Source of the DNA: a virus
Reading direction: 5' to 3' (one strand)
DNA length: 44,466 bases
IMG/VR virus record: IMGVR_UViG_3300045988_053012
Coordinates: 1 to 44,466 of that record
In this document: one piece after another, positions 1-44,466 of the stretch
How the letters are laid out: every line of letters starts with the position of its first letter
Numbering within the stretch: position 1 is the stretch's first letter
The notes under the pieces: generated by a model
Told to the model about the DNA's origin: nothing
The model's database searches: none
The model's input: the letters and a program-made list of their open reading frames with translations, nothing else
Program-made: the position numbers and the translations under genes

Positions 1-119
1 ATTGATGGCCAAGATTGTACCGACATTGGGGACGATGCGTTGGCCGCCATTACGGAAAAGTTGAATGACGTTCCCGAAAGCGAATTGACCGCCCAATTGG
101 AAGCGGTCAAAAAAAAAAT
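1..119. repeat. Terminal direct repeat (left copy), identical to 44348..44466; circular-assembly overlap
   Basis: Base-by-base identity of 1-119 with 44348-44466, ending in the same A10 run. Confidence 0.95.
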
Positions 120-501
120 TGACGGGGAATTAACATTGTATTTCCCGGCCCTTTTCAACGATTCGGACGTGAAAGAATATTACGACATTTTACGCAAGCG
201 AACGTTGGAAATCTTGAACGGGATTGTGGCGGGGGTTGACGACCCGGCGGGTGCGGAAATCGTTGACAAATTGACGACGGCGTTAATTACCTATTCCAAC
301 CCGAAAATGTTTACCGGTTCCGATGGCGTGGAAATACAGTTTGACCGACAATTTGAAAACCTTTGTTTGGTATTGTCGGAACAATTGCACGTCGAACCCA
401 AGAAATATTCCGTTTTGGAATTTTACAACGCGTTCGATTTTGTCAAGGAAAGGGCGAAACAGGCGGAAAAGGCACAGAAACGGGCCAAATTTAAGCGATA
501 A
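1..501 (+). CDS. C-terminal part of a junction-spanning gene (continues from 44063..44466); tail assembly chaperone candidate by position
   Basis: Frame is open from base 1 (IDGQDCTD...) and matches the frame of the ORF opening at ATG 44063. Ends TAA 499-501, 75 nt before the tape-measure gene. Combined product is about 261 aa. Confidence 0.5.
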   Translation: MDGQDCTDIGDDALAAITEKLNDVPESELTAQLEAVKKKIDGELTLYFPALFNDSDVKEYYDILRKRTLEILNGIVAGVDDPAGAEIVDKLTTALITYSNPKMFTGSDGVEIQFDRQFENLCLVLSEQLHVEPKKYSVLEFYNAFDFVKERAKQAEKAQKRAKFKR

Positions 502-575
502 CAACCCGGGATGTGTAATTTATCATTTGAGAAACAAAATGCCGTTAAAACGGATTTTTAACGAAAATAAATATT

Positions 576-3500
576 ATGGACAATCCGAACCCAATTTATT
601 ACCGCGATTTGATTACGCCAGACGATTCGATAACCAATTTGATGGACCAATTGGACGAATTGATTACCAAGTACGACGGGGCAAAACAAAAAATACAGGG
701 AGCGGCCGCTGAAATTGCCAAGGGTATGCAAAACGTGTCCGGCGCAAGCGAAGAACAACGCAAAAACATTCAATTAGCAACCGAACAATCCGAAAAGTTG
801 GTTGCCGAATATCGTGACGTTACGACCGCCCAATGGAAAGTGACCCAAGCGTTTGCGGAAGCCGCCGCCGCCAAAAAGGAATCGGCCCAAATTGACAAAC
901 TGATTACCCAAATAAATACGTCGGTTGAGGGGTCATATAACAGGTTATCGGCCCAATACCGATTGAACAAAATACGTCTTAACGAGATGTCAACCGCCGA
1001 GCGTCAAGGTACAGAATCGGGCCGGGCGTTGGAAGCGGAAACCGCCGCCATTTATGAGGAAATGAAGCGGTTGCAAGAAGCGACCGGCAAACACCAATTG
1101 AACGTCGGCAATTATGGCGATGCGGCAAAAGGTCTGAAGATGGAATTAACGTCGTTGATTCAACAAATGGTGTTGTTGAAAACCAACGGGGAACAAAATT
1201 CGGAAGAATACCAAAAGATGGCCCAACGGGCGGGCGAATTGAAAGACGCGATGATGGGTGCGCAAAAAGAGGTTGTGGCGATGTCATCCGGTACCAAAAC
1301 GATGGACGCGACAATGGGCGCGGCATCCGCCGCGTCCGGCGGTATGGCGGCCGTTACGGGTACAATGGCGTTGATGGGTACAACATCCGAAACGGCAACT
1401 GAAGCGCAAAAGGATTTGGGCGGCGCAATCGGCATCGTTTCCGGATTGGCGGCTGTACAAAACGCGTTGCAAAGGGAATCCAACTTAATGACCGGTATTC
1501 GTACATTGCAAACAAAGGCGGCAACCAAAGCCGAACAGTTGGACGCGGCCGCCAAGAAAAAGAACATTGTCGCCACGACCGGCGCGACCATCGCGCAACG
1601 CTTATTCAATGCCGTTGCCGCCGCCAATCCTTATGTTCTTTTGGCAATCGCGTTGGTTACTGTTGTGGGCGCACTGGTAGCGTTTGCCGCCGGGGCCAAC
1701 AGGGCCGCAAAGGAACAAACCAAATTGAACAAAGCGACGGCCGCCCAATTGGACTATATGGAAGAATACGCCAAATCGGCAAGCCGGGTCAATAACGAAC
1801 GAATCCAAGCGTTGCAAAACGAATTGGATGTGGCCAAGGCCCGTAACGCGTCAATATCAGAAACCTGGGCGTTGGAAGATGAAATTTACAACGAACGCGT
1901 CAAGGCCCACGACAAACAAATGAAAATATATGGCGAACAGGTTGCCGGATTGGAAGCGAACCGCGCCAAGGTTGAGCAATTGCGAAAAACGCTTTTGGAA
2001 TTGCAACAGGCCCAAGCCGCCGGAAAGAATCGTTTGCGCGTGGATGTTGATTTGGACGGAAAGGTTGAGAACACAAAGATTGAAAAAGCAATTGAAGCTG
2101 TACAAGGCCAAATTGACAATTACGGCCGTTCCGTTCAAATTGCCGTTGACTTGCAAACAGAGGGTGCGCAAATTTCCACGGACCGCGCCGCACAATTGGC
2201 CCAACGCCGCAAGGAATCACAAGATATTGCCAAGACTGAATTGGACGTGTTGCGTTCGTCGCAAGACGCCCGCATTGCGATAATAACCGATTCTTACAAG
2301 CGTGAATCCGTCCAATTGAAAGCAAACGCCCAACGCCAAATCCAAGACGTTCAAACACGGTTAAAGACCGAAACCAATTTGACCGTAAAGGCCCGCCGGG
2401 CTTTGAATGACCAAATAAAAGCCATTCAAGTAAAGTACAACCAAGATTTGCAAGATTTGCAAAACAAATATATGGCGTTGAACGTGGCCGCCATTCGGGA
2501 AACCGAGGACATCCAAATTGCGTTGATGGCGGACGGCGCGGAAAAGCAACGCCGCGAACTTGAAACGCAATATAAACGTCGTATCAACGATTTACAAACG
2601 GCCCTTGCGAACGAACGGGATTTGACCGCGACCCAACGGGACGAAATGATAAAGCAATTGGAACTGTATGGCAAACAATACCGTCAAGAACTTTCGAAAT
2701 TAAACGAACAAATTTCCGTTGACCAATTAAATGCCGATGCTGCCCGGATTCAATTGCAATTGGACGCTACACGTGAGGGGTCCCAAGAACAGGTTGATTT
2801 GTCGATTGAGTTGTTAAAAAAACAACGCGACATTGAATTGGCGCAAAACGCCCAATTGAACGCCGATGTACGACAAAATGAAGCGGATATTAACAAGAAA
2901 TGGGACGCCATCATATTGAAGCAAACAACCGAATTAACGTCCAAGCGGGCGTTGGCGTTGTTGGATGCGCAACAGAAATTGGGCGCGTCGGAATTTGCTT
3001 TGTTAGATACCAACGAACGCCAAAAAACCCAATTCCAATTGCAACAGGAAAAGGAACGGTTGCAAAAGATATTAGAATTGGACGACGCCGCCGGATTGAA
3101 AATGACCGAACAGGAACGAAAGGCGATTGAAAACACGATTGCGGCCATTGAAAAAGAATCCAAGAAATTGCCATACAACAATATGTATGAATTGTTGGGT
3201 ATTGGTTTGGATTCGGAACAACAGGACGCATTGAATACGGCCATTGATTCTGTAAAAGAATCCATCGGGTCGTTGGTTGATTCTTGGAACGCGGCGGCGG
3301 AAGCGGCCGTTAATGCGGCGAACGCCCAAGTTGATGCCGCGCAACGCACGTTGGACGCCGAAATTGAAGCCCGGAACGCCGGGTATGCCAATGAGGTAAC
3401 GACCGCGCAAAAGGAATTGGACTTGGCAAAGAAAAACCAAGATATGGCAATTAAGGAAAAGCAAAAGGCGCAAAAGGCCCAATTGGCTATTGATACAATA

Positions 3501-4070
3501 ACACAAACGTCGTCGTTGATTACGGCAAGCGCAAATATTTGGTCAGGATTTACGGCAATACAACCCGCGCCTTTGGGCTTGGCTTTAGCAATTGCGGCAT
3601 TGGCAACATTGTGGGGGTCTTTTGCTGTTTCAAAAGTAAAGGCCGCACAAGTTGCGGGCGTATCGGAAGCGTATGGCGACGGTACGGTTGAACTGTTGCA
3701 AGGCGGTTCCCACGCAAGCGGCCACGACATTGACTTGGGGACAAAGCCGGACGGAACCCGACGCCGGGCAGAGGGCGGCGAATACTTTGCCGTCATTAAC
3801 AAGCGAAATTCCCGCCGTTATGGCCATTTGATTCCGGACGTAATCAATGCTTTTAACAATGGCACGTTTGCGGACAAATACCAACGCGCAAATGCCGCAA
3901 TGGGCGGTTATGCCGTTGGTTTGGTTGGCGGCGGAAATACGGATGTTTCCGGGCTTGAAAAGGACGTTGCCGCAATCCGCCAACAGGGCGACCGCACCCA
4001 ATACGTGGACGGCCAAGGAAACACCGTTATTCGGTACAAGAATTTGACCCGCAAGATTTATAAAAACTAA
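576..4070 (+). CDS. Tail length tape measure protein
   Basis: 1164 aa and the largest ORF. Long Q/A/E/K-rich coiled coil. Gly/Ala-rich hydrophobic segments (PYVLLAIALVTVVGALVAFAAGA, PAPLGLALAIAALATLWGSFAV). Lies between the chaperone-position gene and the tail-tip genes. Confidence 0.9.
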   Translation: MDNPNPIYYRDLITPDDSITNLMDQLDELITKYDGAKQKIQGAAAEIAKGMQNVSGASEEQRKNIQLATEQSEKLVAEYRDVTTAQWKVTQAFAEAAAAKKESAQIDKLITQINTSVEGSYNRLSAQYRLNKIRLNEMSTAERQGTESGRALEAETAAIYEEMKRLQEATGKHQLNVGNYGDAAKGLKMELTSLIQQMVLLKTNGEQNSEEYQKMAQRAGELKDAMMGAQKEVVAMSSGTKTMDATMGAASAASGGMAAVTGTMALMGTTSETATEAQKDLGGAIGIVSGLAAVQNALQRESNLMTGIRTLQTKAATKAEQLDAAAKKKNIVATTGATIAQRLFNAVAAANPYVLLAIALVTVVGALVAFAAGANRAAKEQTKLNKATAAQLDYMEEYAKSASRVNNERIQALQNELDVAKARNASISETWALEDEIYNERVKAHDKQMKIYGEQVAGLEANRAKVEQLRKTLLELQQAQAAGKNRLRVDVDLDGKVENTKIEKAIEAVQGQIDNYGRSVQIAVDLQTEGAQISTDRAAQLAQRRKESQDIAKTELDVLRSSQDARIAIITDSYKRESVQLKANAQRQIQDVQTRLKTETNLTVKARRALNDQIKAIQVKYNQDLQDLQNKYMALNVAAIRETEDIQIALMADGAEKQRRELETQYKRRINDLQTALANERDLTATQRDEMIKQLELYGKQYRQELSKLNEQISVDQLNADAARIQLQLDATREGSQEQVDLSIELLKKQRDIELAQNAQLNADVRQNEADINKKWDAIILKQTTELTSKRALALLDAQQKLGASEFALLDTNERQKTQFQLQQEKERLQKILELDDAAGLKMTEQERKAIENTIAAIEKESKKLPYNNMYELLGIGLDSEQQDALNTAIDSVKESIGSLVDSWNAAAEAAVNAANAQVDAAQRTLDAEIEARNAGYANEVTTAQKELDLAKKNQDMAIKEKQKAQKAQLAIDTITQTSSLITASANIWSGFTAIQPAPLGLALAIAALATLWGSFAVSKVKAAQVAGVSEAYGDGTVELLQGGSHASGHDIDLGTKPDGTRRRAEGGEYFAVINKRNSRRYGHLIPDVINAFNNGTFADKYQRANAAMGGYAVGLVGGGNTDVSGLEKDVAAIRQQGDRTQYVDGQGNTVIRYKNLTRKIYKN

Positions 4071-6528: not shown

Positions 6529-7732
6529 CAATTTATCCGTATTGCCGTGGTACACATCCATTGAGCAACAGAATGCCCGGAAATGGTGGATATACAACAG
6601 GATTTACCCGTTATTTACCCCGGCGGGGTTCCTGTTGCCATTTCAGTTGATACGCGACCACCGTACATCGGAAATTCAAACCCGTTTGTATTCCGACGAT
6701 GGGGACGTAGGATATTTGACCGCGCAAGGGGATTGGAAACAGGACGTGACAACCGGATTATGGGTTGACCAATTCGACAACATAACCGGCAACAAAGTTT
6801 ATTTGTCCGAGGTTCCCGCGCCATATACAGGCGGTGTAATGGCCGTTGCGTATGATTCAGGCGAAACGCAAGTATTGGGAACATTCAACCCGTCCATTGG
6901 GCAAAACGAATCATATACCGGTATATGGAATTTGCCGGCCGGAACACGGTCGATTTGTGTACAGGTAAGGAACGCAAATGCCAGCAAATATTCGGGCGAA
7001 ATATATTCTTTTACGGAAATCGTGCGCCCCGTTGAAATGCTCAAAATATACACAAAAACCGGCGAATTAGTGGGCGATTATAGCGTTCGAATTGACGAAT
7101 TTGGATTTGCCGTTAAACCATTTGTTGCCGAGGGTTACGACGTAATCGTTTATGGCGGGCAATTGCCGAGGTTTCCTCAAATGGAAAATGGACAATATTA
7201 CATTGAATTGGGCGATGGCGTGCAAACGTGGTATTCCGAGGTGTTCACGGTTGTAAATGACATTTCCGGTTATCTTAAATTGGAATGGTGGGATGTTGAG
7301 GATTTCCGAATGGATGCCGGTACAATTGTTTACAAATATACGAATGGTACGCAATTTCGGAATGTCTTGTATTTACAAGCGGATATTGCCAAGCCGGAAT
7401 ATCCGTTTGAAGAAGAGGGCGAAACCCGGGATGGTTACTTTTTCCCGATAAAACAGATTTCCGAAAAACATTACCGGTTTTCATTCCTTGCGTCCGAATA
7501 CCTGTTGGATGTAATGCGGTTTATTAGGATGGCCGATTACGCGCACATTGAAAAGAACGGCCAAATTTACAATCTTGACACGTTCTTAATTACGCCCGAT
7601 TGGGAAGATAATGGCGACGTGGCCGCCGTGGAAGCCGAATTTGATACGGCAACCGTTGCAAAGAAAATCGGCCGTGGTTATGTTCAACCAACAGGCGATT
7701 TTAACAAAGATTTCAACAACGATTATAGTTAA
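6515..7732 (+). CDS. Tail/baseplate structural protein (hypothetical)
   Basis: 405 aa; overlaps the upstream gene by 14 nt; sits in the tail module. C-terminal DFNKDFNNDY motif is shared with 40718..42076. Confidence 0.4.
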   Translation: MIPNNNLSVLPWYTSIEQQNARKWWIYNRIYPLFTPAGFLLPFQLIRDHRTSEIQTRLYSDDGDVGYLTAQGDWKQDVTTGLWVDQFDNITGNKVYLSEVPAPYTGGVMAVAYDSGETQVLGTFNPSIGQNESYTGIWNLPAGTRSICVQVRNANASKYSGEIYSFTEIVRPVEMLKIYTKTGELVGDYSVRIDEFGFAVKPFVAEGYDVIVYGGQLPRFPQMENGQYYIELGDGVQTWYSEVFTVVNDISGYLKLEWWDVEDFRMDAGTIVYKYTNGTQFRNVLYLQADIAKPEYPFEEEGETRDGYFFPIKQISEKHYRFSFLASEYLLDVMRFIRMADYAHIEKNGQIYNLDTFLITPDWEDNGDVAAVEAEFDTATVAKKIGRGYVQPTGDFNKDFNNDYS

Positions 7733-7752
7733 GTATTTAATGTGTTTTAATT

Positions 7753-9045
7753 ATGGCTAATAACGAATTGTTAAAGGCTTCGATTCGTAGTGCAATCAAA
7801 GCAAATGGCAATGAAGAAATTACGGGTGATATATTGCAACAAACATTGGTGGCGATTGTGGATGCGTTGGGAAAGGGCTATCAATTCATGGGTGCCGCGA
7901 TACCCGGTACAGTTCCGGGTATACCAGACCAAAAAGTCTGTTATTTGGCGATGGAAAAAGGAGTATATCCTAATTTCAATGCTTTAGAAGTTGGGGAACA
8001 CGAAATTGCAATTATGATGTATGATAGCCGATGGTGGGGCATTACTATCCCGTCCAATGTTCCGGATGTAAATGCCGTAAGCTATCTTAAACAGTGGCAT
8101 TCCAATGATGAAAAAGCGCAAGCACGTAATAATATAGGTATTCCAGATTATGCTACGTTTGATATTGTAGGGCAATTAGCGGTCAATCTCGGAGATGTCG
8201 TAAAATATGTTGACGCATTTGGTACCATATATAACGATGAACCTGGTGCTATAATAGTCAATTCAAATATTCTTGAAATTGATTTTTGCGGTGCGACGTT
8301 GGAAACTAGATATGGCATTAAAGGTCACGCAAGATGCAAGATTAAGAATTTAACTATTAAGATGACGGCTAACAATACCGCCATTGAGGGATTCGGCTAT
8401 GTGGAAAATGTATATGTGACAGCGGTTAGCACCCCGCATGTTGTAATTCCTTATGGCTTTAGGAATTGCGACCATTTGTATAATTGTAAGTGTGATGGAA
8501 ATGACCGCAGCAATGATAAAAGCGGTGCCGATACGGGATTTAGCTATTGTAATTATTTATTCCAATGCAGATATAGCGGTTGGCCAACTGAAGTTCATTG
8601 CATCGGATTCGAACATTGCAATTTTATTTCACAATGCTATATGAAGTATGGCTATTCAAATCTGACATTCAAGTATAGCCTTGGTACGAATCGACATGTT
8701 GAAAGTCTTATAGGTATTTCTTATAGCGGTGAAACACCGGTTTTCGAAACATTTGCAGATACTAGCCATATACGTATCGGCGATTACAATTTGGACAATT
8801 TCATTAAGCTAATATCGTCAAGTGGTGGAACGGGAAAAACGAAACTTTATGCGAAGCCGGATGATAAACCGGGTATGGCTACCGTTTTGATGGACACAAG
8901 CGTTGTAAATTTGGCAGTTGCGCGAAGAACGGCAACGGGAACGTTGAAAGCAAGAGACGCGAGCGATGAAGATGATGTGGTGACCTTGAAGCAGCTAAAC
9001 GCGGCCGTAAATGAGTTAAAGGCATTGATTGCGCAAATGGGTTAA
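7753..9045 (+). CDS. Tail fibre / receptor-binding protein candidate
   Basis: 430 aa; last large ORF of the tail module before the lysis genes. N-terminal LQQTLVAIVDALGKGYQFMGAAIPGT segment resembles fibre N-termini of Bacteroidota phages (from memory). Cys/His-rich centre; helical C-terminus. Confidence 0.5.
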   Translation: MANNELLKASIRSAIKANGNEEITGDILQQTLVAIVDALGKGYQFMGAAIPGTVPGIPDQKVCYLAMEKGVYPNFNALEVGEHEIAIMMYDSRWWGITIPSNVPDVNAVSYLKQWHSNDEKAQARNNIGIPDYATFDIVGQLAVNLGDVVKYVDAFGTIYNDEPGAIIVNSNILEIDFCGATLETRYGIKGHARCKIKNLTIKMTANNTAIEGFGYVENVYVTAVSTPHVVIPYGFRNCDHLYNCKCDGNDRSNDKSGADTGFSYCNYLFQCRYSGWPTEVHCIGFEHCNFISQCYMKYGYSNLTFKYSLGTNRHVESLIGISYSGETPVFETFADTSHIRIGDYNLDNFIKLISSSGGTGKTKLYAKPDDKPGMATVLMDTSVVNLAVARRTATGTLKARDASDEDDVVTLKQLNAAVNELKALIAQMG

Positions 9046-9058
9046 AGGCATTGATTGC
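9015..9058 (+). repeat. 18-bp perfect direct repeat (gttaaaggcattgattgc) x2, period 26, straddling the fibre-gene stop
   Basis: Copies at 9015-9032 and 9041-9058. The stop codon TAA 9043-9045 lies inside copy 2. Confidence 0.9.
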
Positions 9059-9072
9059 AAAATAGTATCGGT

Positions 9073-9555
9073 ATGTATAATATATATCAAGAAAAGATTG
9101 TTTCCGGCTTAATTGCTGGTGCAATGGGTGTCTTATGCGAATCATTATTCCCGTTATTCGTTTGTGTCGTAATTTTTGAAATTGTGGATTTTACGACCGG
9201 AGTATGGAAATCGGCAGTCGTATCTCGCAGGAACGGCGAACATTTTGCCTTTGAATCAATAAAGGCGTGGCGCACGATATATAAGGTTGTGTTCATCATG
9301 GTAGGAATAATCCTTGCGGAAATGCTAGATGCGGCGTTGTGTAAAGAACGATTGCGATTGGCGAATTTCTTTGCCGCTTTTGCGTGCGGTGTGGAGTTTT
9401 GGTCGTTTTTGGAAAATGCCGCCGTAATATCGAATCATCCAATATTCCGCTGGCTTCGTAAGTTCATGCGGCATAAAGTGGAGGACACAATAGGCGAAAA
9501 ATTCGAGCAGACGTTTGTTCAAGGTTCCGGAAAAGAATCAATTGAAAAAGAATGA
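9073..9555 (+). CDS. Holin (phage_holin_4-like, three TM segments)
   Basis: Hydrophobic helices LIAGAMGVLCESLFPLFVCVVIF, IYKVVFIMVGIILAEML and LANFFAAFACGVEFWSFL. Directly upstream of the amidase. ATG 9073 preferred over the in-frame TTG 9055 used by the track. Confidence 0.65.
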   Translation: MYNIYQEKIVSGLIAGAMGVLCESLFPLFVCVVIFEIVDFTTGVWKSAVVSRRNGEHFAFESIKAWRTIYKVVFIMVGIILAEMLDAALCKERLRLANFFAAFACGVEFWSFLENAAVISNHPIFRWLRKFMRHKVEDTIGEKFEQTFVQGSGKESIEKE

Positions 9556-9565
9556 GTAATTAACC

Positions 9566-9587
9566 GGGGGCGGTTTCGGCCGCCCCT
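9566..9587 (+). other. GC-rich stem-loop between holin and endolysin (weak terminator or attenuator)
   Basis: GGGGGCGG / tttcgg / CCGCCCCC, followed by only TTT. Confidence 0.4.
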
Positions 9588-9604
9588 TTAACCCTTTACG
9601 AAAA

Positions 9605-10180
9605 ATGGATAATATCATATTATTAGATAATGGTCACGGCCAAGAAACGCCCGGCAAACGTTCGCCGGTGTGGAAAGACGGCCGGCAACTATTCGAATGG
9701 GAATTTAACCGCGATATGGTACGCCGTATCATATTGAAATGTTCCCACGCCGGAATACGTGCGGTCAAGTTGGTGCCGGAAACGTTCGACGTATCGTTGG
9801 AAGAACGTTGCAAGCGTGCCAACCTGTGGTTTGACCGATGCGGTGGCAATTGCGTTGTTGTGAGCATCCACGCCAACGCCGGCGGCGGAACCGGCTTTGA
9901 GGTGTACACGTCGCCCGGACAAACACAGGCCGACCCGATTGCAACAAAGTTGATTGAGCGATTGCAACAGGATTTCCCCGAAATCAAAATGCGTAAGGAT
10001 ATGGCCGACGGCGACCCCGATAAGGAATCCGGGTTTTATATCCTCAAACACACGAAAGCCCCGGCAATATTGGTTGAAAACCTGTTTATGGATACTGAAA
10101 GCGATTGCCGGTTGTTGATGGCCGAGGATTTCCGCGACAAATTGGCGGATTCGTATGTTGAATTTATTAAAAAACTGTAA
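9605..10180 (+). CDS. Endolysin, N-acetylmuramoyl-L-alanine amidase (Amidase_3)
   Basis: 191 aa with LDNGHG, SIHANAGGG, GFEVYTS and APAILVENLFMD motifs. Follows the holin. Confidence 0.9.
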   Translation: MDNIILLDNGHGQETPGKRSPVWKDGRQLFEWEFNRDMVRRIILKCSHAGIRAVKLVPETFDVSLEERCKRANLWFDRCGGNCVVVSIHANAGGGTGFEVYTSPGQTQADPIATKLIERLQQDFPEIKMRKDMADGDPDKESGFYILKHTKAPAILVENLFMDTESDCRLLMAEDFRDKLADSYVEFIKKL

Positions 10181-10230
10181 TTATATGCCCTATTGGGGCG
10201 AAAACAAATTATTTATAACTATTAAAAATT

Positions 10231-11548: not shown

Positions 11549-11782
11549 ATGGCAATGTTGAAATACACAACCCGTCAAATCAACGGCAATTACAAAATCA
11601 AGGTTTCCGGCCTGTACGATGGCAAGAAAATAAACACGTTGGTTGGAGTTTCGGGTCTTATTAAAATAGTTGACGACATCGAATTAACCAACCGTCTTTT
11701 GGACCGGGCCTTTGCCTGTATGGATGGCAAATGCGTTTGCAAATTGCGCCGTGGAATACGTGTCAGTTTTTACGTTCATTGA
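11549..11782 (+). CDS. Hypothetical protein
   Basis: 77 aa; first cistron after promoter A. Confidence 0.55.
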   Translation: MAMLKYTTRQINGNYKIKVSGLYDGKKINTLVGVSGLIKIVDDIELTNRLLDRAFACMDGKCVCKLRRGIRVSFYVH

Positions 11783-11900
11783 AAAATTACTATCGTTTGC
11801 AACGAACGGTTGTTTGCCCCAACCGATACGAAATTTAATACCCTGTAAAGTAAATCCACGGGGGCAAAACGTGGGTTGAAATACGGGGCGTTTTTGTATT

Positions 11901-12158
11901 ATGAAAATATGCGTTATGAATAAGGCACGATTTCAATTATTGGCGGACGCAACAATGATGATGGCCGCCGCGATGGACAACCAGTTGTTCGACACGGGGC
12001 CGTCCAAAGTTTACGTCAAGCCCATATCCAAAACGGATTTGCCAAGTTGGGACATAAACGGGGCGGTCATTTACGCAAAGGATGAAAAGACGGCCACGAA
12101 ATACGCCAAGAAACGCGGTTTGTGGCGTCCGGGAACGATTGTTAAACCCATCAAATAA
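11901..12158 (+). CDS. Hypothetical protein
   Basis: 85 aa; + strand operon position. Confidence 0.5.
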   Translation: MKICVMNKARFQLLADATMMMAAAMDNQLFDTGPSKVYVKPISKTDLPSWDINGAVIYAKDEKTATKYAKKRGLWRPGTIVKPIK

Positions 12159-12270
12159 ACTGATATGCAAAAATTCAAATTCGGGAATCCCTTAACGTTT
12201 GTTGATGTTTCCAAAAACCCGTTGGACCGTCCGGAACCGGGCAACCGGTACACAAAAAAAAGAAAGCAAG

Positions 12271-12543
12271 ATGGCAAAGATTATTGAAAATGAAAAAGGA
12301 TTTAAGGTTATCGAAATTGATTCCCTTGAAATGCAGAAAATAGGTTGCGGCAATATATGCGACCATTGCGGCAAACCACATTGGGGAAAAGGTTATTATG
12401 TTGCCGTTCTCAACCGTTGGTTTTGCCCGCCCTGTTACGAAGATTGGTACAAATTTGCCACCAATTACGCAAACAAACACAACGCCGACGGGCGGGTTGA
12501 AACAAAGAATTTCGAATTTTATAAAAAATTGTTGGGGCTATGA
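12271..12543 (+). CDS. Hypothetical zinc-ribbon protein
   Basis: CGNICDHCG ... FCPPCYEDW motifs. ATG 12271, preceded by an A-rich leader, preferred over the TTG 12199 used by the track. Confidence 0.55.
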   Translation: MAKIIENEKGFKVIEIDSLEMQKIGCGNICDHCGKPHWGKGYYVAVLNRWFCPPCYEDWYKFATNYANKHNADGRVETKNFEFYKKLLGL

Positions 12544-12782
12544 TGGCGCAAATTGAGAACATCCCGGATGGGTACATTGTCGGGGTGTTTTTAAGGGATG
12601 GTAACGGATATGGACAATGGCACAGGTTGCGCAATTTCGGCGACCGCCAAGGCGACGCAATCGAATTTCGGGAATGGGATTTACCCACGTTCACGGATGA
12701 GCAAATACGATTGTTCATTAAGACATTCAAGATTGAAAATAAGTATAAACGTTTAGGCAAAAACAAGTATGCAAAAGTATAG
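12540..12782 (+). CDS. Hypothetical protein
   Basis: 80 aa; ATGA start/stop overlap with the upstream gene. Confidence 0.55.
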   Translation: MMAQIENIPDGYIVGVFLRDGNGYGQWHRLRNFGDRQGDAIEFREWDLPTFTDEQIRLFIKTFKIENKYKRLGKNKYAKV

Positions 12783-13135: not shown

Positions 13136-13136
13136 G

Positions 13137-15171: not shown

Positions 15172-15466
15172 CGTATCTTTGTCACGTTTAGTTTTTCAGT
15201 TTAACATGGTAACAGGAACGGCCAACGTTGCGAAACGTCGGCCGTTTGTGCTTTCGGCCCGTATAGGCCAATATCGGGCGATTTGGCGGCCTTTCTCGTG
15301 AAATTGGACCAACGCACCATCTTTGCGCAAAACGTGCCTTAAATCGAAAATTCGGAAAAATTAAGGTTTTGTCGGTGGCGCCTGTTTTCTTTGGTAGCCC
15401 GATTCGGACTTTTGGTTTTCGTTTTTCGGGTTCCTGGTCAAAAACTTAAAAAATTATGAAAATATT

Positions 15467-19621: not shown

Positions 19622-20416
19622 ATGACGTACAATTTGAATATAGACCAAGAATTTGCGATTGTCAACGACCTTTCGTTGGTACATGTTTCCACGCTGGCCG
19701 CGTTTATGACGTTGCCGATATGGACCAAGACAATTGCAATTGACGGGTTCGTGTGGTATCAGTATTCCGACGAAAAGATGGCCGACGATTTCCCGTTATT
19801 GTTTGGCGTGGCGAAAAGGTGTTACAAGAACATTGCCGAATTGGCCGCGTTGGGATTCGTTGAATTAACCAAGTTGGGACGCACGAAATATGTTAGGTTC
19901 ACGAAACGTTGTGCCGATTGGGGAAAGCAAAAAGAACAAATCCGGTCCAACGGTCCGAAAACGGACCGAGAACAGACCGAAAACGGACCGGCAATTAGTC
20001 CGAAAACGGACCCGGTAAATAATAACTATAACATTACCAATCCGAGCATTGAAGATAAAGCCGCCGACGGCGGTTTGTTCCCGACCGAACCTGCGTTTGA
20101 AACGGTTACAGTTACCCGGCCGCGCCGGACCGCCGAACCGGCCGTGTGTCTGTTCGAAAATTCCCGTTTCGCCGAATACAATGCGTTTGCCGCCGAATTT
20201 ACAGCCCCGGAATTTGCCGACGTGGATATTGTCTATTATTACCACGCCGTTGCGGATTGGTCCGCACAAAAGGGCAAGAAAATGAAAGATTGGATTGCAA
20301 CCGCGCGGAATTTCATTCGTGGCGATAAGGAAAAGAACAAGTTGCACCGGAAAAGCGGAACCGGACCGGGATTGTCACCGGATGCAATTAAATATTTGCA
20401 AGATATGGCAGATTAA
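19622..20416 (+). CDS. Replication initiator / replisome-organizer candidate
   Basis: 264 aa. Carries dyad iterons plus an AT-rich tract mid-gene (lambda O-like layout). The C-terminal YYYHAVADWSAQKGKKMKDWIATARNFIRGDKEK resembles DnaD/phage organizer tails (from memory). Confidence 0.45.
   Translation: MTYNLNIDQEFAIVNDLSLVHVSTLAAFMTLPIWTKTIAIDGFVWYQYSDEKMADDFPLLFGVAKRCYKNIAELAALGFVELTKLGRTKYVRFTKRCADWGKQKEQIRSNGPKTDREQTENGPAISPKTDPVNNNYNITNPSIEDKAADGGLFPTEPAFETVTVTRPRRTAEPAVCLFENSRFAEYNAFAAEFTAPEFADVDIVYYYHAVADWSAQKGKKMKDWIATARNFIRGDKEKNKLHRKSGTGPGLSPDAIKYLQDMAD
19953..20040. repeat. Putative origin of replication: three 14-bp dyad iterons plus an AT-rich tract
   Basis: G(T/A)CCGAAAACGGAC at 19953-66, 19975-88 and 19998-20011, spaced 22-23 bp. 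Followed by about 25 nt of ~84% A+T (20016-20040). Confidence 0.55.
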
Positions 20417-21316: not shown

Positions 21317-21525
21317 TGGAAAAACCGTGTACAACGTGCAAATATGGGGAAAAACAATATCGTCGTATTCCACGACCCGATAAATACTTATACACTTTAC
21401 ACGACGTTTACGCCGGAATCATTTGTAAAAAATACAATGGACCGTTTGGCCGGGATTGTCTGTTATATCAAAATTGGCGTATCATTCAAAAGGCCCAACG
21501 ATTACAAAATAGAGCAAAAAAGTAA
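21316..21525 (+). CDS. Hypothetical Cys-rich protein
   Basis: 69 aa; TAATG overlap with the upstream stop. Preferred over the alternative frame 21344..21553. Confidence 0.45.
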   Translation: MEKPCTTCKYGEKQYRRIPRPDKYLYTLHDVYAGIICKKYNGPFGRDCLLYQNWRIIQKAQRLQNRAKK

Positions 21526-21536
21526 CATATTTTTCG

Positions 21537-23782: not shown

Positions 23783-23853
23783 TGCTTCGTGGTGTAACGG
23801 TAACACCCCGGATTTTGGTTCCGGTAATCCACGTTCGAATCGTGGCGGGGCAA
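23783..23853 (+). tRNA. tRNA-Gln (anticodon UUG)
   Basis: 71-nt cloverleaf. Acceptor TGCTTCG/CGGGGCA (two G-U pairs). D arm GTGT-AACGGTA-ACAC. Anticodon arm CCGGA-TTTTGGT-TCCGG. T arm CCACG-TTCGAAT-CGTGG. CCA is not encoded. Confidence 0.8.
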
Positions 23854-23857
23854 CAAA

Positions 23858-23959: not shown

Positions 23960-24040
23960 ACCCACGTGGCGTAATGGTAGCCGCGATTGATTCAAAACCA
24001 ATTGCCGTATGGCGTGCCGGTTCGATTCCGGCCGTGGGTA
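23960..24040 (+). tRNA. tRNA-Leu (anticodon CAA), class II
   Basis: 81 nt. Acceptor ACCCACG/CGTGGGT. D arm GCG-(taatggtagc)-CGC. Anticodon arm ATTGA-TTCAAAA-CCAAT (A-C at 31:39). 13-nt variable arm GCC-gtat-GGC. T arm GCCGG-TTCGATT-CCGGC. Confidence 0.7.
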
Positions 24041-24249
24041 CAAAGTTCTTTGAAATGCAATCTTTGATGTTTTTAGGCGTAAGACCGTCAACGCCCCGTG
24101 AAAAAATATGTGAATGTCACAGGCGTTTAAGTTGGCATTTTGCCGTAATACAAAATCACACTTTCCGGTAAAGTTCGTGCGAAGAATGGCCACAATAATC
24201 CAATTGCAAACCGAAAACCATAGATTGCATTTCTTTTGAAAAATACGGA

Positions 24250-32574: not shown

Positions 32575-32590
32575 CAAAAACAATTGAGTT

Positions 32591-33151
32591 ATGGCAAATG
32601 ATAATGGGAAAATCGAACAGGCCGAACCCAAGAAAAAAGGCCGGAAACCACAATGGACCGATACCAAAGTGGAAATTATGTGCAAGGCCATTGCCGCCGG
32701 GAAATCGTATAAAGATGCGTTTACGGCCGCCCGTGTGTCAAAGGCGACGTTTTACGCCCATTTGGCAAACGATTCGGACTTTTCAGACCGGGTAAAAAAG
32801 GCCGAACAGGAATACCAAGATTGGTACGATTCCCAATTGGTCGTTGACTGTAAACGTTCGTTGTTGGAACTGATACGCGGTTACGAATGGGATGAAACCA
32901 CAACGGAAACGGCACCGGGGAAAGATGGCAAAGGAACAGTCACGAAAACAAAGGTTGTACACAAAAAGGCCGCGCCGAATCCAACGGCGATTATCTTTGC
33001 GTTGTGCAATCGTGCGCCGGGCGAATGGTCCAATAAGCACATCCAAGAATTAACCGGCAAGATTGAAACGGAATCGAAGCCGGGTATTACATTGGCCAAC
33101 GTTCCGGATAACCTATTGGCGCAAGTTATTGATGCAATAAACGGGAAATGA
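32591..33151 (+). CDS. terS: Terminase small subunit candidate
   Basis: 186 aa. Basic N-terminus and HTH-like WTDTKVEIMCKAIAAGKSYKDAFTAARVSKATFYAHL. First gene after the late-type promoter and two genes upstream of TerL. Confidence 0.5.
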   Translation: MANDNGKIEQAEPKKKGRKPQWTDTKVEIMCKAIAAGKSYKDAFTAARVSKATFYAHLANDSDFSDRVKKAEQEYQDWYDSQLVVDCKRSLLELIRGYEWDETTTETAPGKDGKGTVTKTKVVHKKAAPNPTAIIFALCNRAPGEWSNKHIQELTGKIETESKPGITLANVPDNLLAQVIDAINGK

Positions 33152-33475: not shown

Positions 33476-33643
33476 ATGGCGGGGTTTGGAAAAACGGATG
33501 GTCCGCAAGACCCGGACGAAGATGTTATTATTATTCATTTGGGCCATTTGTCCGATGAACGATACAACCGCGTCGTGAAATCCATTACGGCGTTTATGAA
33601 TGCAAGGTGGCCGAATTTTGAAAATATTGGGATTGATAGTTGA
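33476..33643 (+). CDS. Hypothetical small protein (55 aa, below the track cutoff)
   Basis: MAGFGKTDGPQDPDEDVIIIHLGHLSDERYNRVVKSITAFMNARWPNFENIGIDS. Fills the gap between the GNAT gene and TerL. Confidence 0.45.
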   Translation: MAGFGKTDGPQDPDEDVIIIHLGHLSDERYNRVVKSITAFMNARWPNFENIGIDS

Positions 33644-33653
33644 TTATGTGATT

Positions 33654-35198
33654 ATGGACGTTGATACAATGCAAATAACCCGGGTGTTGTCGGAACACCA
33701 GGAATTGTTTTTACAAGAGGGCGCACGGCGTAACCTGTTGTGGTTTGCTGAATATATGGACCCGAACTTTGACCCAACGCCATTTCACGTTGCATATTAC
33801 CGGGTATTGGATATGTTCGTGAAACGCAAGATTCGCAAACTAATCATACAGGCCCCGCCGCAACACGGCAAATCCCAAGGTTCAAGCCGGTTTTTACCGG
33901 CCGATATGTTGGGCCATTTTCCGGACTTGAAATTTTGCATTTGTTCGTATGCCGCAACCATTGCCAAGGATTTCAACCGCGATGTTCAACGTTTGATTGA
34001 TTCGGATAAATACCGGGCATTATTCCCGGATACGCAATTGAATGGGTCCAACGTGGTAACGGTTGCCAACAATTACTTGCGCAATTCGGATGTGTTCGAA
34101 ATTGTCGGGCATACCGGTTCGTTGCGCGTCGTGGGCCGTGGCGGTTCGTTGACGTCCAAGACCGTGGACGTAATGATTTACGATGATTTGTACAAAGATT
34201 CCACCGAAGCCAATTCCCCGATAATCCGGACGGCCGCGTGGGACTGGTTCACGAAAGTTGCACAAACCCGTTTGCACAATGATTCCCAACAATTGGTCGT
34301 CTTTACCCGGTGGAATCCGGATGATATTATTGGCAAAATCATTGATTCGGAAAAGGTCGTGTTTGCTGAACGATGGTCCGATTTTGACAACATCCCGTCG
34401 GGCGCGTGGGTATTGGTCAACTTTGAAGCAATCAAGACCGGCGAATCGACGGAAATTGACAACAGGGAACCCGGGCAACCGTTGTGGCCGCAACGCCATT
34501 CGTTGGAACGCCTGTTGCAACAAAAACAATTGGACCCGTTGGGTTTCCAATGCCTGTACCAAGGCAACCCGGGCGACGCAACCGCGTATCTTTACCAACC
34601 GTTCAAAACGTGGGTTGAAAAATCGGATTGGGGCCAATATGTCCGTTCGGGTTGTTACGTTGATGTGGCAGACTCTGGTGACGATTTCTTGTTTGCCGCG
34701 TCTTATGACATATACCGGTCCGAAAACCAAATATGGAACGAAGCCAAACACCGAATGGAACCGTTGTTGTTCGCATTGATAACGGACATTGAATTTACCG
34801 ACGAATCAACAGAGGTTACGACCGTGACCGTTCCCCGGATGATTAACAACAATGGCGTACAAAAAGCGTGGATTGAATCGAACAACGGCGGGTCCCAATA
34901 CGAACGGGTTGTGAAAAAAAAGGTTCGGGCGTTGACGGTCCCGTTTTACCAAAGCGACAACAAGGAATCCCGAATTGTCACGAATGCGCCGTTTGTCAAT
35001 CAACATATCGTTATGCCATTCGGCTGGGAAACGCGGTACAAGAAATTCCACGACCATATTGTGGGATTCTTGCGCAAGTTTGATGCGAATACCCACGACG
35101 ACGACGCGGATGGATTAACCGGGATTTATGAAAAGGAAATTGCCGACGGAAACACGAAACCATATAATGCCGCATCCCGTGGCGTTCGTGTTCATTAA
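33654..35198 (+). CDS. terL: Terminase large subunit
   Basis: Walker A-like QAPPQHGKSQ, Walker B VMIYDDLYKD, and nuclease acidic clusters YVDVADSGDDF and THDDDADGL. ATG 33654 chosen because it follows the upstream stop; the track opens the same frame at 33600. Confidence 0.9.
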   Translation: MDVDTMQITRVLSEHQELFLQEGARRNLLWFAEYMDPNFDPTPFHVAYYRVLDMFVKRKIRKLIIQAPPQHGKSQGSSRFLPADMLGHFPDLKFCICSYAATIAKDFNRDVQRLIDSDKYRALFPDTQLNGSNVVTVANNYLRNSDVFEIVGHTGSLRVVGRGGSLTSKTVDVMIYDDLYKDSTEANSPIIRTAAWDWFTKVAQTRLHNDSQQLVVFTRWNPDDIIGKIIDSEKVVFAERWSDFDNIPSGAWVLVNFEAIKTGESTEIDNREPGQPLWPQRHSLERLLQQKQLDPLGFQCLYQGNPGDATAYLYQPFKTWVEKSDWGQYVRSGCYVDVADSGDDFLFAASYDIYRSENQIWNEAKHRMEPLLFALITDIEFTDESTEVTTVTVPRMINNNGVQKAWIESNNGGSQYERVVKKKVRALTVPFYQSDNKESRIVTNAPFVNQHIVMPFGWETRYKKFHDHIVGFLRKFDANTHDDDADGLTGIYEKEIADGNTKPYNAASRGVRVH

Positions 35199-42700: not shown

Positions 42701-43286
42701 CACAAACGCACCCATCATTAAAAACCCGGTTATGTTGGACCGGGTAATTGGGGAAATACAAACCGGATTGGTTGAAAATTTGCCGTGGTTGGACGCGGCC
42801 TTTGGCCGTTCGCAACGCCTTACAAAGATGAGGAACGGCAAAAAGATAATTACGCCGAATGTCTATTGCGGCGGATGGAACGGCCACGGCGAAAACGATT
42901 ACATCGAAACGTCCCCGGATGCCAAGATTGGCAACTTTTCGTTTTTTGAAATTGAGGACCCGCAAACCATTGACGCGGGGCCGTGGGCGCGTGAAATCAA
43001 AGCCCCGTTCGGCCTTATCGTCTGGTTCGATTTAACCCGGGTGTATGATGAACCGGACAACAGGAATACCGAATACATCAAAGCCCAAATTTTGCGCGTG
43101 TTGAACGGCCGGGCCGGTTGGCATTTAAGCGGCGGTCGTATTGTCTTGAATAAGATTTACGAACGCGCCGAAAACATTTACCGTGGTTATACACTTTCGG
43201 AAATTGACAATCAATTTTTGATGCACCCGTATTATGGTATTCGATTTGATGGGATATTGGAATTTGATGAACTTTGTTTTGAATGA
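42693..43286 (+). CDS. Hypothetical head-tail joining region protein
   Basis: 197 aa; assigned by synteny only. Confidence 0.4.
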   Translation: MSNTNAPIIKNPVMLDRVIGEIQTGLVENLPWLDAAFGRSQRLTKMRNGKKIITPNVYCGGWNGHGENDYIETSPDAKIGNFSFFEIEDPQTIDAGPWAREIKAPFGLIVWFDLTRVYDEPDNRNTEYIKAQILRVLNGRAGWHLSGGRIVLNKIYERAENIYRGYTLSEIDNQFLMHPYYGIRFDGILEFDELCFE

Positions 43287-43816
43287 TTATGGAAAAAGTT
43301 TTGGCAATCAATCCCAATTACACCGTATTTTCGGACGGTCGCATTTTTAGTAAGATTTCCGGTAAATTCTTGAAACCGTGGAAAAGCAACAAAGGTTATC
43401 CAATTGTTTCTTTATGCGATGGAAAAGGCGGACACAAATTTTATTTGTTGCATCGTCTAATTGCAACCGCATTTATTCCGAATCCGGAAAACAAACCGTG
43501 CGTGGACCATTTGGATTGTAACCGTGAAAATTGCGCCGTTGAAAACTTGCGTTGGGTAACGTATTCTGAAAACAACAGAAATCCAATAACGGTAAAAGGT
43601 TTGGCACACGGAAATTCGATGCGCGGACGTTTCGGGCAAAACAATCCGTTATCGAAACGTGTTTTGTGTTATACGCGAAATGGCGATTTGGTTAAATGTT
43701 ATGGCGGCGTACACGAAGCAAGCAGGGAAACAGGAATAAACAAAGGCGATATTGGCGCGTGTTGCCGTGGCAAGAGAAAAACCGCCGGAAATTATATTTG
43801 GAAATATGATAATTGA
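43283..43816 (+). CDS. Free-standing HNH homing endonuclease (NUMOD4 / HNH_3 / NUMOD1-like HTH)
   Basis: 177 aa; YTVFSDGRIFS, VDHLDCNRENCAVENLRWVTYSENNRN and GVHEASRETGINKGDIGACCRGKRKTAGNYIW. Confidence 0.85.
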   Translation: MIMEKVLAINPNYTVFSDGRIFSKISGKFLKPWKSNKGYPIVSLCDGKGGHKFYLLHRLIATAFIPNPENKPCVDHLDCNRENCAVENLRWVTYSENNRNPITVKGLAHGNSMRGRFGQNNPLSKRVLCYTRNGDLVKCYGGVHEASRETGINKGDIGACCRGKRKTAGNYIWKYDN

Positions 43817-44069
43817 ATTTGTATGTTGGGTTGCGGTCGTCGCATTGGCGGCCGCATTCCTGTTGGCGTTGGCGGCAAAATGGAAATGGTTGGAATGGTT
43901 GCAAGTCCACGCGCCAAATGACTTTTTCGAACAACTGTTTAATTGCAAATTCTGTTGTTCGTGGTGGGTTTGCGTCATTATTTCGCTAACTTTATGCGTG
44001 GCAACCGGCCATTGGATATTGTTGGCCGCGCCGATTTGTTCAACGTTGATAACCCGGGAATTATGGTAA
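43806..44069 (+). CDS. Small membrane protein (three TM segments, FNCKFCCSWW motif)
   Basis: 87 aa from ATG 43806 (the track opens the same frame at 43752, inside the HNH gene). Hydrophobic segments VCWVAVVALAAAFLLALAA and WWVCVIISLTLCVATGHWILLAAPI. Confidence 0.5.
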   Translation: MIIEFVCWVAVVALAAAFLLALAAKWKWLEWLQVHAPNDFFEQLFNCKFCCSWWVCVIISLTLCVATGHWILLAAPICSTLITRELW

Positions 44070-44466
44070 CGGCAAAGATTGGAAAACACACCGTGGAATT
44101 TTACGACACAATCGAAGAATTGCCGATTGTGCGTTTCCATAAATATCAAAAGTTGTTGTTGGTTGATGCGGGCATTGGTTCCGACATTGCCGCGTTTGAC
44201 CAGCGCATTGAAAAAACGCGCCGGTTCCTTATGGCCGGTAAACCCGAACAGGCACAACAGGAATTGGAAAATATGCGCCAATGCGTGTTTTTGCTTCAAT
44301 CGGGCGTCAATCCTAAACACCGGGCATTTGCCGCGTTGATAACAAAGATTGATGGCCAAGATTGTACCGACATTGGGGACGATGCGTTGGCCGCCATTAC
44401 GGAAAAGTTGAATGACGTTCCCGAAAGCGAATTGACCGCCCAATTGGAAGCGGTCAAAAAAAAAAT
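44063..44466 (+). CDS. N-terminal part of the junction-spanning gene (continues at 1..501); tail assembly chaperone candidate
   Basis: ATG 44063 overlaps the upstream stop (ATGGTAA). The frame is open to the window end and is in phase with 1..501 through the 119-bp overlap. Confidence 0.5.
   Translation, partial: MVTAKIGKHTVEFYDTIEELPIVRFHKYQKLLLVDAGIGSDIAAFDQRIEKTRRFLMAGKPEQAQQELENMRQCVFLLQSGVNPKHRAFAALITKIDGQDCTDIGDDALAAITEKLNDVPESELTAQLEAVKKK
44348..44466. repeat. Terminal direct repeat (right copy), identical to 1..119
   Basis: Exact 119-bp identity with the window start. Confidence 0.95.

Follow-up and report, generated by a model that had tools for sequence, protein, structure and literature searches.

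Genome and gene content

The DNA considered here is the IMG/VR record IMGVR_UViG_3300045988_053012, positions 1 to 44,466, called the window below. It is a complete virulent-type siphovirus genome from the human gut and belongs to the group of phages PDS1, BKO1-3 and AS73P1 (candidate family 'Paboviridae'), and it contains no copy of the tetranucleotide GATC. The first 119 bp (1..119) are identical to the last 119 bp (44348..44466). This terminal direct repeat, produced where the assembly of a circular or circularly permuted genome overlaps itself, indicates that the assembly is complete and circularly closed, with 44,347 unique bp.

Genes were called as simple open reading frames (ORFs) beginning at the first ATG, on the + strand, which carries all genes of the window and to which all gene coordinates below refer. 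An ORF of 1,164 amino acids (576-4070) occupies the position of the tape-measure gene of annotated relatives. The lysis genes encode a holin (9073-9555) and an endolysin (9605-10180). The genes for DNA metabolism include those of a PD-(D/E)XK nuclease (16870-18159), a RuvC-like resolvase (21537-22097), an SMC-like ATPase (24788-26197), a NinB-like protein (26662-27111), an RNase T-like exonuclease (27324-28190) and SSB (30215-30640), with an HNH-like ORF at 29041-29469. The small terminase lies at 32591-33151, and the large terminase subunit (TerL, 33600..35198) served as the marker for finding relatives. The gene order common to the relatives is exonuclease, RDF-like protein, replication, RuvC, SMC-like ATPase, NinB, exonuclease, SSB, the two terminase subunits, portal, capsid, tape measure and lysis.

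The window TerL is 64-67% identical in amino acid sequence to those of Bacteroides phage BKO1-3, B. uniformis phage C1_85S2P, Parabacteroides phages PDS1 and PD491P1, Alistipes phage AS73P1 and Elizabethkingia phage TCUEAP2. The core genes and their synteny agree with those of the PDS1-type siphoviruses of about 44-46 kb, and the assignment to Paboviridae is made on these two features rather than on formal genome-wide clustering. The group was named as a candidate family in the PDS1 paper, which gives Bacteroides and Parabacteroides as hosts inferred from CRISPR (PMC10773633), and cultured members of the family are present in 18-44% of 930 viromes (PMC12694917). A megablast search with 25 kb of the window against deposited phages gave no match, and the relatives were found through proteins instead. 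The exact terminase protein of the window is present in human gut metagenomes of the Fiji Community Microbiome Project, while the record names of several relatives indicate ruminant gut samples (e.g., 'Sheep_Rectum').

Absence of GATC

An exact count over the 44,466 bp gives zero GATC; the site is palindromic, so this holds for both strands, and the circular junction adds none. All of the 256 tetramers except GATC occur on the 44,347-bp circle. The parts of GATC are common, with 880 copies of GAT and 460 of ATC, and the tetramers one substitution away from it add up to 2,225. An earlier note, made from the sequence alone, had claimed that GATC is totally absent, that several hundred GATs occur but none before a C, and that composition would predict 150-175 sites. 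The exact counts bear this out, and the expectation from base composition is 169. The maximal-order Markov model, which the same note proposed as a check, predicts 117 sites. When the sequence is shuffled 200 times with all proteins and the exact dinucleotide counts preserved, 87.1±7.4 sites are expected (range 71-105), and the probability of finding none is about 1e-38. The count is thus zero against nulls controlled for composition, for Markov order and for proteins plus dinucleotides, which is the depletion that passive avoidance of a restriction site leaves.

Since the + strand holds all genes, the way in which the sites are removed can be read from codon context. Before a C, aspartate is encoded 102 times by GAC and never by GAT, while before A, G or T the codon GAT is as common as GAC or commoner. 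Similarly, after a G, isoleucine is encoded by ATT or ATA (177 codons) and never by ATC, which is used 203 times after A, C or T. NGA stands before TC in 0 of 305 cases. Every potential GATC has therefore been removed synonymously, in all three frames. The codon choice flips with the neighbouring base, which is not predicted by composition and indicates that selection acts on the DNA word itself. The near-absent tetramer CATG shows the same pattern (3 CAT|G against 68 CAC|G, and C|ATG at 3 of 337 methionine codons).

These results bear on the idea that mutation bias, extreme codon or dinucleotide usage, or a sequencing or assembly artefact has produced the absence. The composition of the window is indeed very skewed (CT at 0.27, AG at 0.39, CG at 1.59 and AA/TT at 1.4-1.6 of expectation), and in the shuffles the dinucleotide skew fully accounts for the rarity of two other tetramers, AGCT (6 copies) and CTAG (5). 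However, GATC contains neither AG nor CT, its halves GAT and ATC are abundant, sequences shuffled with the same proteins and dinucleotides retain at least 71 sites, and the codon choice flips solely where a GATC would form. In addition, two close relatives of the same composition (loci L035 and L039, see below) have near-expected GATC numbers, and cultured isolates that were sequenced independently are equally devoid of GATC. Together with the ongoing selection described below, these results refute an origin of this kind, whose probability we regard as practically negligible.

Other purged words

The earlier note had listed palindromic tetramers that remain plentiful, and they do (CCGG 472, GGCC 303, TCGA 129, ACGT 233, GCGC 175, AATT 541), but it overlooked the near-absence of CATG and the rarity of AGCT and CTAG. 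CATG occurs 7 times against 101.6±8.3 expected; this and the following expectations are from the protein- and dinucleotide-preserving shuffles. Several asymmetric or degenerate words are lost as well: CCTTC/GAAGG (0 against 43), GAGGC/GCCTC (1 against 26), CCTCC/GGAGG (1 against 19), GTCTC/GAGAC (1 against 17), GGTGA/TCACC (12 against 59), CCWGG (6 against 33) and CCCCC/GGGGG (6 against 69).

The view that this is not a general loss of palindromes stands insofar as the loss is motif-specific, but it has to be qualified for longer sites, because half of the 64 six-bp palindromes (32) are missing, whereas the shuffles lack 8.7±1.8 of them (maximum 15). At least 14 of those with a sizeable expectation are at zero. 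They include CCGCGG (0 observed, 29.5 expected), TTTAAA (0/20), ATTAAT (0/15.2), GCGCGC (0/14.4), GAATTC (0/14.2), ATCGAT (0/12.8), TCGCGA (0/11.6), CGTACG (0/11.5), GTCGAC (0/8.2), GATATC (0/7.5) and ATGCAT (0/6.2), and GGCGCC is nearly gone (1/18.4). On the contrary, CGGCCG (59/39), TCCGGA (29/15) and CAATTG (67/64) are not lost, and GGCC, CCGG, ACGT, TGCA and GTAC are also at or above expectation. The loss of sites is therefore motif-specific, yet it covers far more motifs than GATC.

Five of the seven residual CATG sites (7887, 8437, 8695, 9297 and 9465) lie inside the tail-fibre, holin and endolysin module (7725..10199), which is swapped relative to the nearest relative, contains no GATC and encodes a holin only 69% identical to that of this relative. 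Another one (15205..15208) is intergenic, in an early region (11556-15981) that the nearest relative lacks. The last (19682..19685) is inside the ORF at 19622-20416. The sites in the module and at 15205 may be recent imports from lineages that tolerate CATG, with their purge still pending.

On/off switching and ongoing selection among relatives

The relatives were studied as 138 loci of at least 5 kb and at most 21.5 kb, anchored on the terminase or the exonuclease; each represents half of a genome, and some are pairs taken from a single contig. A site was considered to be avoided when its observed/expected ratio (O/E) was below 0.1. By this threshold, GATC is avoided in 105 of the 138 loci, where 38 sites are left in 1.77 Mb instead of the 3,977 expected, so that the comparison with related phages suggested in the earlier note extends its observation to most of the family. 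CATG is avoided in 43 loci. Both sites are avoided in 31 loci, only GATC in 74, only CATG in 12 and neither in 21. All four combinations occur, and the two avoidances toggle independently. The cultured phages BKO1-3, PDS1 and AS73P1 have no GATC and normal CATG.

In the TerL tree, which is not necessarily the tree of the genomes, the GATC-containing lineages form at least nine scattered tips or small groups within a GATC-free background. The GATC status is genome-wide in most loci; in a few (e.g., L047 and L057) it is confined to compositionally distinct segments, which indicates recombination. In Elizabethkingia phage TCUEAP2 (L042) GATC is in excess (139 sites against 73 expected). An excess is also seen in L077 (59 against 39), which has a Mom-family gene, and in L090 (106 against 75), which has a radical-SAM gene of phrog_9298. 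These three might make some positive use of GATC.

The nearest relative of the window is IMG/VR contig 3300045988_045198 (loci L001 and L063), which is about 97-98% identical to it. The two genomes differ at 383 synonymous third positions, none of which creates a GATC, compared to 14.8 expected (P = 4e-7). Similarly, the synonymous differences between the window and four more distant GATC-free relatives include no GATC-creating change, against 49.6, 52.2, 56.6 and 56.7 expected. Purifying selection against new GATC sites is thus ongoing, and it is all-or-none.

The return of sites in lineages that contain them was compared with a rough neutral estimate, based on all aligned sites and on the total pairwise divergence, for sites absent from the nearest site-free relative. 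For GATC, 22 sites were observed in L009 against 20.5 expected (compared with L046), 56 in L035 against 52 (L012), 30 in L039 against 28 (L012), 32 in L023 against 30 (L022) and 73 in L017 against 67 (L051). For CATG, the figures are 55 against 57 in L011 (compared with L003) and 42 against 41 in L016 (L015). This near-neutral return shows that the site-free state needs continuous selection, and that the sites come back once selection is lifted.

The independence of the two sites and their toggling between close relatives also bear on avoidance for reasons other than defence, such as Dam-directed mismatch repair with nicking by MutH, sequestration of the SeqA type or Dam-dependent regulation. 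There is a precedent in enterobacteriophages, where counter-selection of GATC was reportedly ascribed to methyl-directed mismatch repair by McClelland in 1985 and by Deschavanne and Radman in 1991. T7-like enterobacteriophages, whose hosts are Gammaproteobacteria, are likewise said to have a strong under-representation of GATC, ascribed to Dam and MutHLS. Unlike in these phages, the host lineage here is probably Bacteroidales and the loss of GATC is one among many losses of sites. To our knowledge, MutH and SeqA are confined to Gammaproteobacteria and do not occur in Bacteroidota. The avoidance is not specific to GATC, since CATG and more than 15 other typical restriction sites are avoided independently, and switching between close relatives is unexpected for a conserved housekeeping pathway. 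A cause of this type therefore seems very improbable.

Modification, anti-restriction and nuclease genes

Searches of Pfam and PHROGs with all ORFs of at least 100 amino acids and most of the small early ORFs revealed no methyltransferase, base-modification enzyme, GATC-type nuclease or known anti-restriction protein in the window. In particular, genes for Mom, TET/glycosyltransferase, deazaguanine or similar pathways were not found by these searches, which argues against evasion through hypermodified DNA. The early region 11556-15981 (4.4 kb of small ORFs, absent from the nearest relative) gave no match to a family of known function in PHROGs or Pfam, and it may harbour unrecognised anti-defence genes.

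The nearest relative has two methyltransferase genes which the window lacks. One is a ParB-N6/N4 DNA methyltransferase gene (L001, 7810-9332), at the place of which the window has a short stretch (32576..32974) that includes the 5' part of the small-terminase ORF. The other is a methyltransferase-like gene of the phrog_757 kind in a 1.1-kb insert (L063, 15285-16430), opposite which the window has 214 bp (21323..21536). Its assignment comes from tblastn homology to L084:14525-15253, as Pfam found nothing.

Several of the relatives that retain GATC encode putative modification or anti-restriction functions. L077 (O/E 1.5 for GATC, as for the other values in this paragraph) has a Mom-family protein (E = 5e-40). 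The radical-SAM protein phrog_9298, so far seen only in GATC-containing genomes, is found in L017/L079, L088 and L090 (O/E ≥0.83). L019 and L020 (0.66-0.71) encode a TET-associated glucosyltransferase (TAGT) and a ParB-like protein, and so does L050 (0.54), whose glucosyltransferase clusters with that of L019 by BLAST. A C5 methylase is present in L020 and a phrog_757 methylase in L084 (0.66-0.76), an ArdC-like protein in L084 and L086 (about 0.75), and a PAPS-reductase-like protein in L088 (0.99) and others. This pattern is consistent with the explanation by restriction, without being proof of it. The simple rule that GATC-keeping relatives carry a methyltransferase is weakly supported (Fisher p = 0.04-0.07, uncorrected), and methyltransferases occur in GATC-free genomes too.

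The nuclease genes of the window raise the possibility that the phage spares its own genome from a GATC-specific nuclease that it encodes. The PD-(D/E)XK and RNase T-like genes, the HNH-like ORF at 29041-29469 and a further HNH gene at 43283..43816 could be considered, and about half of the small ORFs have no assigned function. However, no ORF matches the DpnII, MboI or Sau3AI/MutH-type families, and the PD-(D/E)XK and exonuclease genes are also conserved in relatives that contain GATC. The gene at 43283..43816, of the HNH/NUMOD4 homing type and located among the tail genes, is missing from the nearest relative (L001 joins window position 43287 to 43790 and thereby skips it), which is equally GATC-free. 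This gene is probably a recent mobile insertion with no part in the avoidance. A nuclease of the phage's own would also leave the parallel loss of many other sites unexplained, and we give this explanation very little credit.

Host and host restriction systems

The host is probably a member of the Bacteroidales, and the habitats make Prevotella/Segatella plausible. The hosts of the TerL relatives are Bacteroidales or Flavobacteriales. Metagenome-assembled genomes were rejected as a source of host information: the 19 matches in species-representative genomes (L044-L062) are all phage-sized contigs of 40-48 kb in taxonomically inconsistent bins (Acutalibacteraceae, Candidatus Enterousia, Alphaproteobacteria, Elusimicrobiaceae, Clostridiaceae, Dysgonomonas and Eubacteriales), which we read as mis-binned. 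The aberrant k-mer composition of the clade has perhaps contributed to this. The loss of GATC itself, proposed in the earlier note as a usable clue to the host, turns out to be a weak one, because it is common to phages of Bacteroides, Parabacteroides and Alistipes and to the unrelated crAss001.

Mimicry of host composition does not explain the loss. GATC occurs 3.59 times per kb in the B. dorei genome (PMC4101878), the B. thetaiotaomicron plasmid p5482 has 236 sites against 171 expected (with CT/AG at about 0.8), and B. fragilis phage Barc2635 has 123 against 153 with normal CT/AG.

GATC-specific systems are documented in this order of bacteria. Prevotella intermedia has an active MboI-like GATC restriction–modification (R-M) system together with an EcoRI-like GAATTC system (PMC5608340). 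Methylation of GATC and CTGCAG is found in some isolates of all five species of the Bacteroides fragilis group, in some of which CCWGG and CGCG methylation is fixed or common (PMC10333322). B. dorei strains vary in Dam methylation (PMC4101878), and GATC is the commonest N6-methyladenine motif in gut phages (PMC10711547).

A set of host methylation motifs was taken from Supplementary Data 11 of PMC10333322, in a version that covers four species, B. fragilis in part; the results on motifs given here and below hold for this partial set. Among its motifs of up to 6 nt, 16% have an observed/expected ratio below 0.2 in the window, compared to 7.6% of all k-mers (Mann-Whitney p = 0.006, with proteins and dinucleotides controlled). 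The motifs at or near zero include GATC, RGATCY, GGATCC, GAATTC, CGAAGG, CATGAB, GGAGG, MTCGAK and CCWGG.

On the other side, CCTGT/ACAGG (135 observed, 63 expected) and CCWGTW (134 observed, 67 expected) are about two-fold over-represented throughout the genome, and the CTG trinucleotides that survive are mostly found as CTGT. CCWGTW and CCTGT are methylation motifs in isolates of P. distasonis, B. ovatus and B. fragilis.

Restriction as the probable selective agent

Taken together, the evidence makes it probable, in our judgement with good confidence, that the absence of GATC is a passive form of anti-restriction, in which the sites were removed under selection by GATC-specific nucleases of the hosts. 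Selection by restriction had been proposed in the earlier note, and it gains support from the codon context, the ongoing selection, the on/off switching, the methyltransferase-free window and the enrichment of host motifs among the purged words. We infer both the agent and the class of enzyme from these observations. Host populations would carry GATC-specific nucleases, most likely Type II R-M systems of the MboI/DpnII type. These systems would be patchy among strains, which would make inherited protective methylation unreliable for the phage. Genome copies bearing a GATC would be cut upon entering a restricting strain, and mutations that create the site would be eliminated. Synonymous escapes always exist: GAT|C can become GAC|C, NNG|ATC can become NNG|ATT or NNG|ATA, and in NGA|TCN another arginine or glycine codon can be used. 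Because GATC is always avoidable in this way, the count has reached zero with the proteins unchanged. The same process would also have purged CATG, CCTTC, GAATTC, CCGCGG, TTTAAA, ATCGAT, CCWGG and other sites.

A variant of this explanation places the main pressure on methylated rather than unmethylated sites: phage DNA marked as G6mATC in one strain would be cut in others by methyl-directed enzymes, either DpnI-like (Type IIM) or Type IV. GATC methylation in Bacteroides is strain-variable and often due to orphan, prophage-borne Dam enzymes (PMC4101878, PMC10333322), and the DpnI/DpnII/DpnIII cassettes of Streptococcus show that both pressures can coexist in one population (PMC12707154). Where both act, only the loss of sites protects, which fits the total elimination of GATC and the fact that no Dam was found in the phage. 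However, the candidate hosts considered here gave no evidence of a DpnI-like enzyme, and what is documented for the order is an R-M system of the classical MboI-like kind. This variant predicts the same sequence pattern, so that DpnI- and DpnII-type pressures are inseparable here, and we consider it rather unlikely that the methyl-directed form is the main one.

Some observations weigh against selection by GATC-specific nucleases or weaken the case for it. The cognate GATC nuclease is a postulated one, with indirect support: the motif set comes from Bacteroides and Parabacteroides rather than from the host itself, and records methylation that is not in all cases linked to a nuclease. At locus level, retention of GATC goes together with modification genes to a moderate degree (Fisher p = 0.04, on half-genome loci and uncorrected for phylogeny). 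In several relatives that contain GATC, the sequence examined has no recognised modification gene, and methyltransferases of the ParB and phrog_757 types (predicted, of unassigned specificity) are also encoded by some GATC-free relatives. Finally, the many small ORFs of the window that have no assigned function might hide an unrecognised anti-restriction protein.

Depletion of AG/CT and phage tRNAs

The window is also depleted 3-4-fold in the dinucleotides CT and AG. CTC, for example, occurs 27 times against 492 expected. The depletion affects every codon phase. It is equally strong where two adjacent codons meet (C|T 0.21, A|G 0.41) and between genes (0.39 and 0.32), so that a translational codon preference is rejected as its cause. 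It is also symmetric with respect to the strands (CTV 0.17 and BAG 0.20, both on the + strand), which rejects a strand-specific effect at the RNA level. The depleted unit consists of CTA, CTC and CTG with TAG, GAG and CAG. These trinucleotides have fallen to about 0.1-0.3 of expectation, and to 0.08-0.49 when each flanking base is considered separately; CTT/AAG is largely tolerated. The depletion is common to the whole family; Barc2635, the B. thetaiotaomicron plasmid and crAss001 do not show it.

Codon usage is shifted accordingly: TTG makes up 66% of leucine codons, CAA 79% of glutamine codons and GAA 91% of glutamate codons, and NCT codons account for 4-8%. The window encodes two tRNAs that match this usage. 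One is a tRNA-Gln with anticodon UUG (23783..23854), which decodes CAA, the AG-free synonym of CAG; the other is a tRNA-Leu with anticodon CAA (23960..24041), which decodes TTG, the CT-free synonym of CTN. This pair is conserved through the strongly depleted clade and is mostly missing where the depletion is relaxed. Relatives have additional tRNAs: Lys-UUU (L003), Arg-ACG (L011) and Glu-UUC (L082). The lineages in which AG/CT is relaxed (rho 0.7-0.9) include carriers of glucosyltransferase, ArdC, C5 methylase or PAPS-reductase genes.

In the relaxed lineage of L019 and L020, ARAGORN predicts tRNA-like genes of unusual length (L019 6842-6939, 98 nt, 'anticodon cggt'; L020 7548-7638, 91 nt, Thr-GGT). 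They adjoin the genes for the ParB-like protein and the glucosyltransferase, and may be intron-containing or aberrant tRNAs.

Dynamic programming shows how far each dinucleotide class can be removed by synonymous changes. The floor for AG/CT is 13% of random, compared to 24-50% for other classes and 0% for CG, which is the only dinucleotide that can be removed fully, while CC/GG is not removable. The window has lost 72% of its avoidable AG/CT. In the partial motif set, AG/CT is obligatory in 78 of the 161 contiguous methylation motifs (48%), second to CC/GG. It is possible, though at this stage a tentative proposal, that the AG/CT purge is a generic, dinucleotide-level form of anti-restriction recoding by the phage clade, with the translational cost presumably paid by the matching tRNAs. 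The relaxed lineages with modification or anti-restriction genes, which mostly lack these tRNAs, and the purge of CG, the other removable dinucleotide, in crAss001 are in line with this proposal. Against this stands the fact that the cost-benefit argument is post hoc and that motif usage across di- and trinucleotides shows no correlation with depletion. The depletion of trinucleotides does not track their use in host motifs (Spearman rho -0.06 for 311 motifs and +0.01 for the 161 contiguous ones). CAG/CTG is the commonest trinucleotide in the motifs, yet CCA/TGG, GAA/TTC and CC/GG, which are also common there, are not depleted.

Remaining features

A run of ten A's (108-118, also 44455-44465) lies within an ORF that spans the junction, from 43994 through 501, just upstream of the tape-measure gene. 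The ORF at 323-712 overlaps this one in another frame, which suggests the usual frameshift arrangement of tail chaperones.

Comparison with known systems

It is well established that virulent phages purge restriction sites from their genomes (Rusinov et al. 2018, PMC6286503; review PMC12707154). As in the virulent double-stranded DNA phages of Rusinov et al., short Type II sites are depleted here in a phage that has no protective methyltransferase, a state which was read as passive escape. Unlike in the documented cases, the purge in the window is unusually complete and broad, with one tetramer at zero, another at 7% and asymmetric pentamers lost too, and the 138 related loci allow selection to be seen as on or off in each lineage.

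Staphylococcus phage K and its relatives reportedly lack GATC (Sau3AI) sites entirely, according to O'Flaherty and coworkers in 2004. That loss, also genome-wide, is said to be ascribed to a host enzyme which cuts GATC, in another host phylum and another phage family. We know of no report of a genome-wide dinucleotide purge or of matching tRNAs in phage K. In Streptococcus pneumoniae, strains that differ in DpnI, DpnII or DpnIII cut either unmethylated or methylated GATC (PMC12707154). This is a setting in which the total loss of GATC is the sole universal escape; the polymorphism is on the host side, in Firmicutes, and is only an analogy for the host of this phage.

A parallel is seen in Bacteroides phage crAss001 (MH675552, of which 80 kb, 1-50000 and 53200-83200, were examined as L147 and L148). 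It infects the same host order and shows both a loss of GATC (1 against 218) and a dinucleotide-level purge. Unlike the window, it belongs to an unrelated family (Crassvirales), has a large tRNA set and has purged CG instead of AG/CT (59 CG against 2,274 expected, rho 0.02-0.03, with many of the residual CGs within the tRNA cluster). CTAG (2 against 262) and GGCC (0 against 39) are also lost. Literature searches, whose results were noisy with matches to Crassostrea, returned no discussion of the loss of CG or GATC in crAss001.

Active evasion by Mom, TET/glucosyltransferase, phage methyltransferases or ArdC reaches the same end by other means; such genes are found in sister lineages, and none was detected in the window. 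The papers on PDS1 (PMC10773633) and BKO1-3 do not mention restriction or methylation. The GATC purge is thus a new case of a documented phenomenon, in a prevalent gut phage family. What is notable is its completeness, the number of motifs, the clean on/off contrasts and the dinucleotide purge with its matching tRNAs. The AG/CT purge is a more novel lead than the loss of GATC.

Implications

The absence of GATC has a practical consequence for host assignment: these phages cannot be linked to hosts in Hi-C or 3C (chromosome conformation capture) libraries cut with Sau3AI, DpnII or MboI. A Hi-C study of the rumen used Sau3AI and MluCI and noted the dependence on site density (PMC6676630). For the engineering or use of these phages in Bacteroidales or Prevotella, inserted DNA must exclude the purged sites.

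If true, a generic recoding of AG/CT, and of CG in crAss001, would be the bacterial-virus counterpart of the avoidance of CpG by vertebrate viruses, and it would give phage-encoded tRNAs one more role. With restriction as the probable agent, the purged motifs taken together read out the restriction repertoire that these phages meet in nature. Restriction then shapes almost every synonymous position of their genomes, and the family offers natural on/off contrasts with which this selection can be measured.

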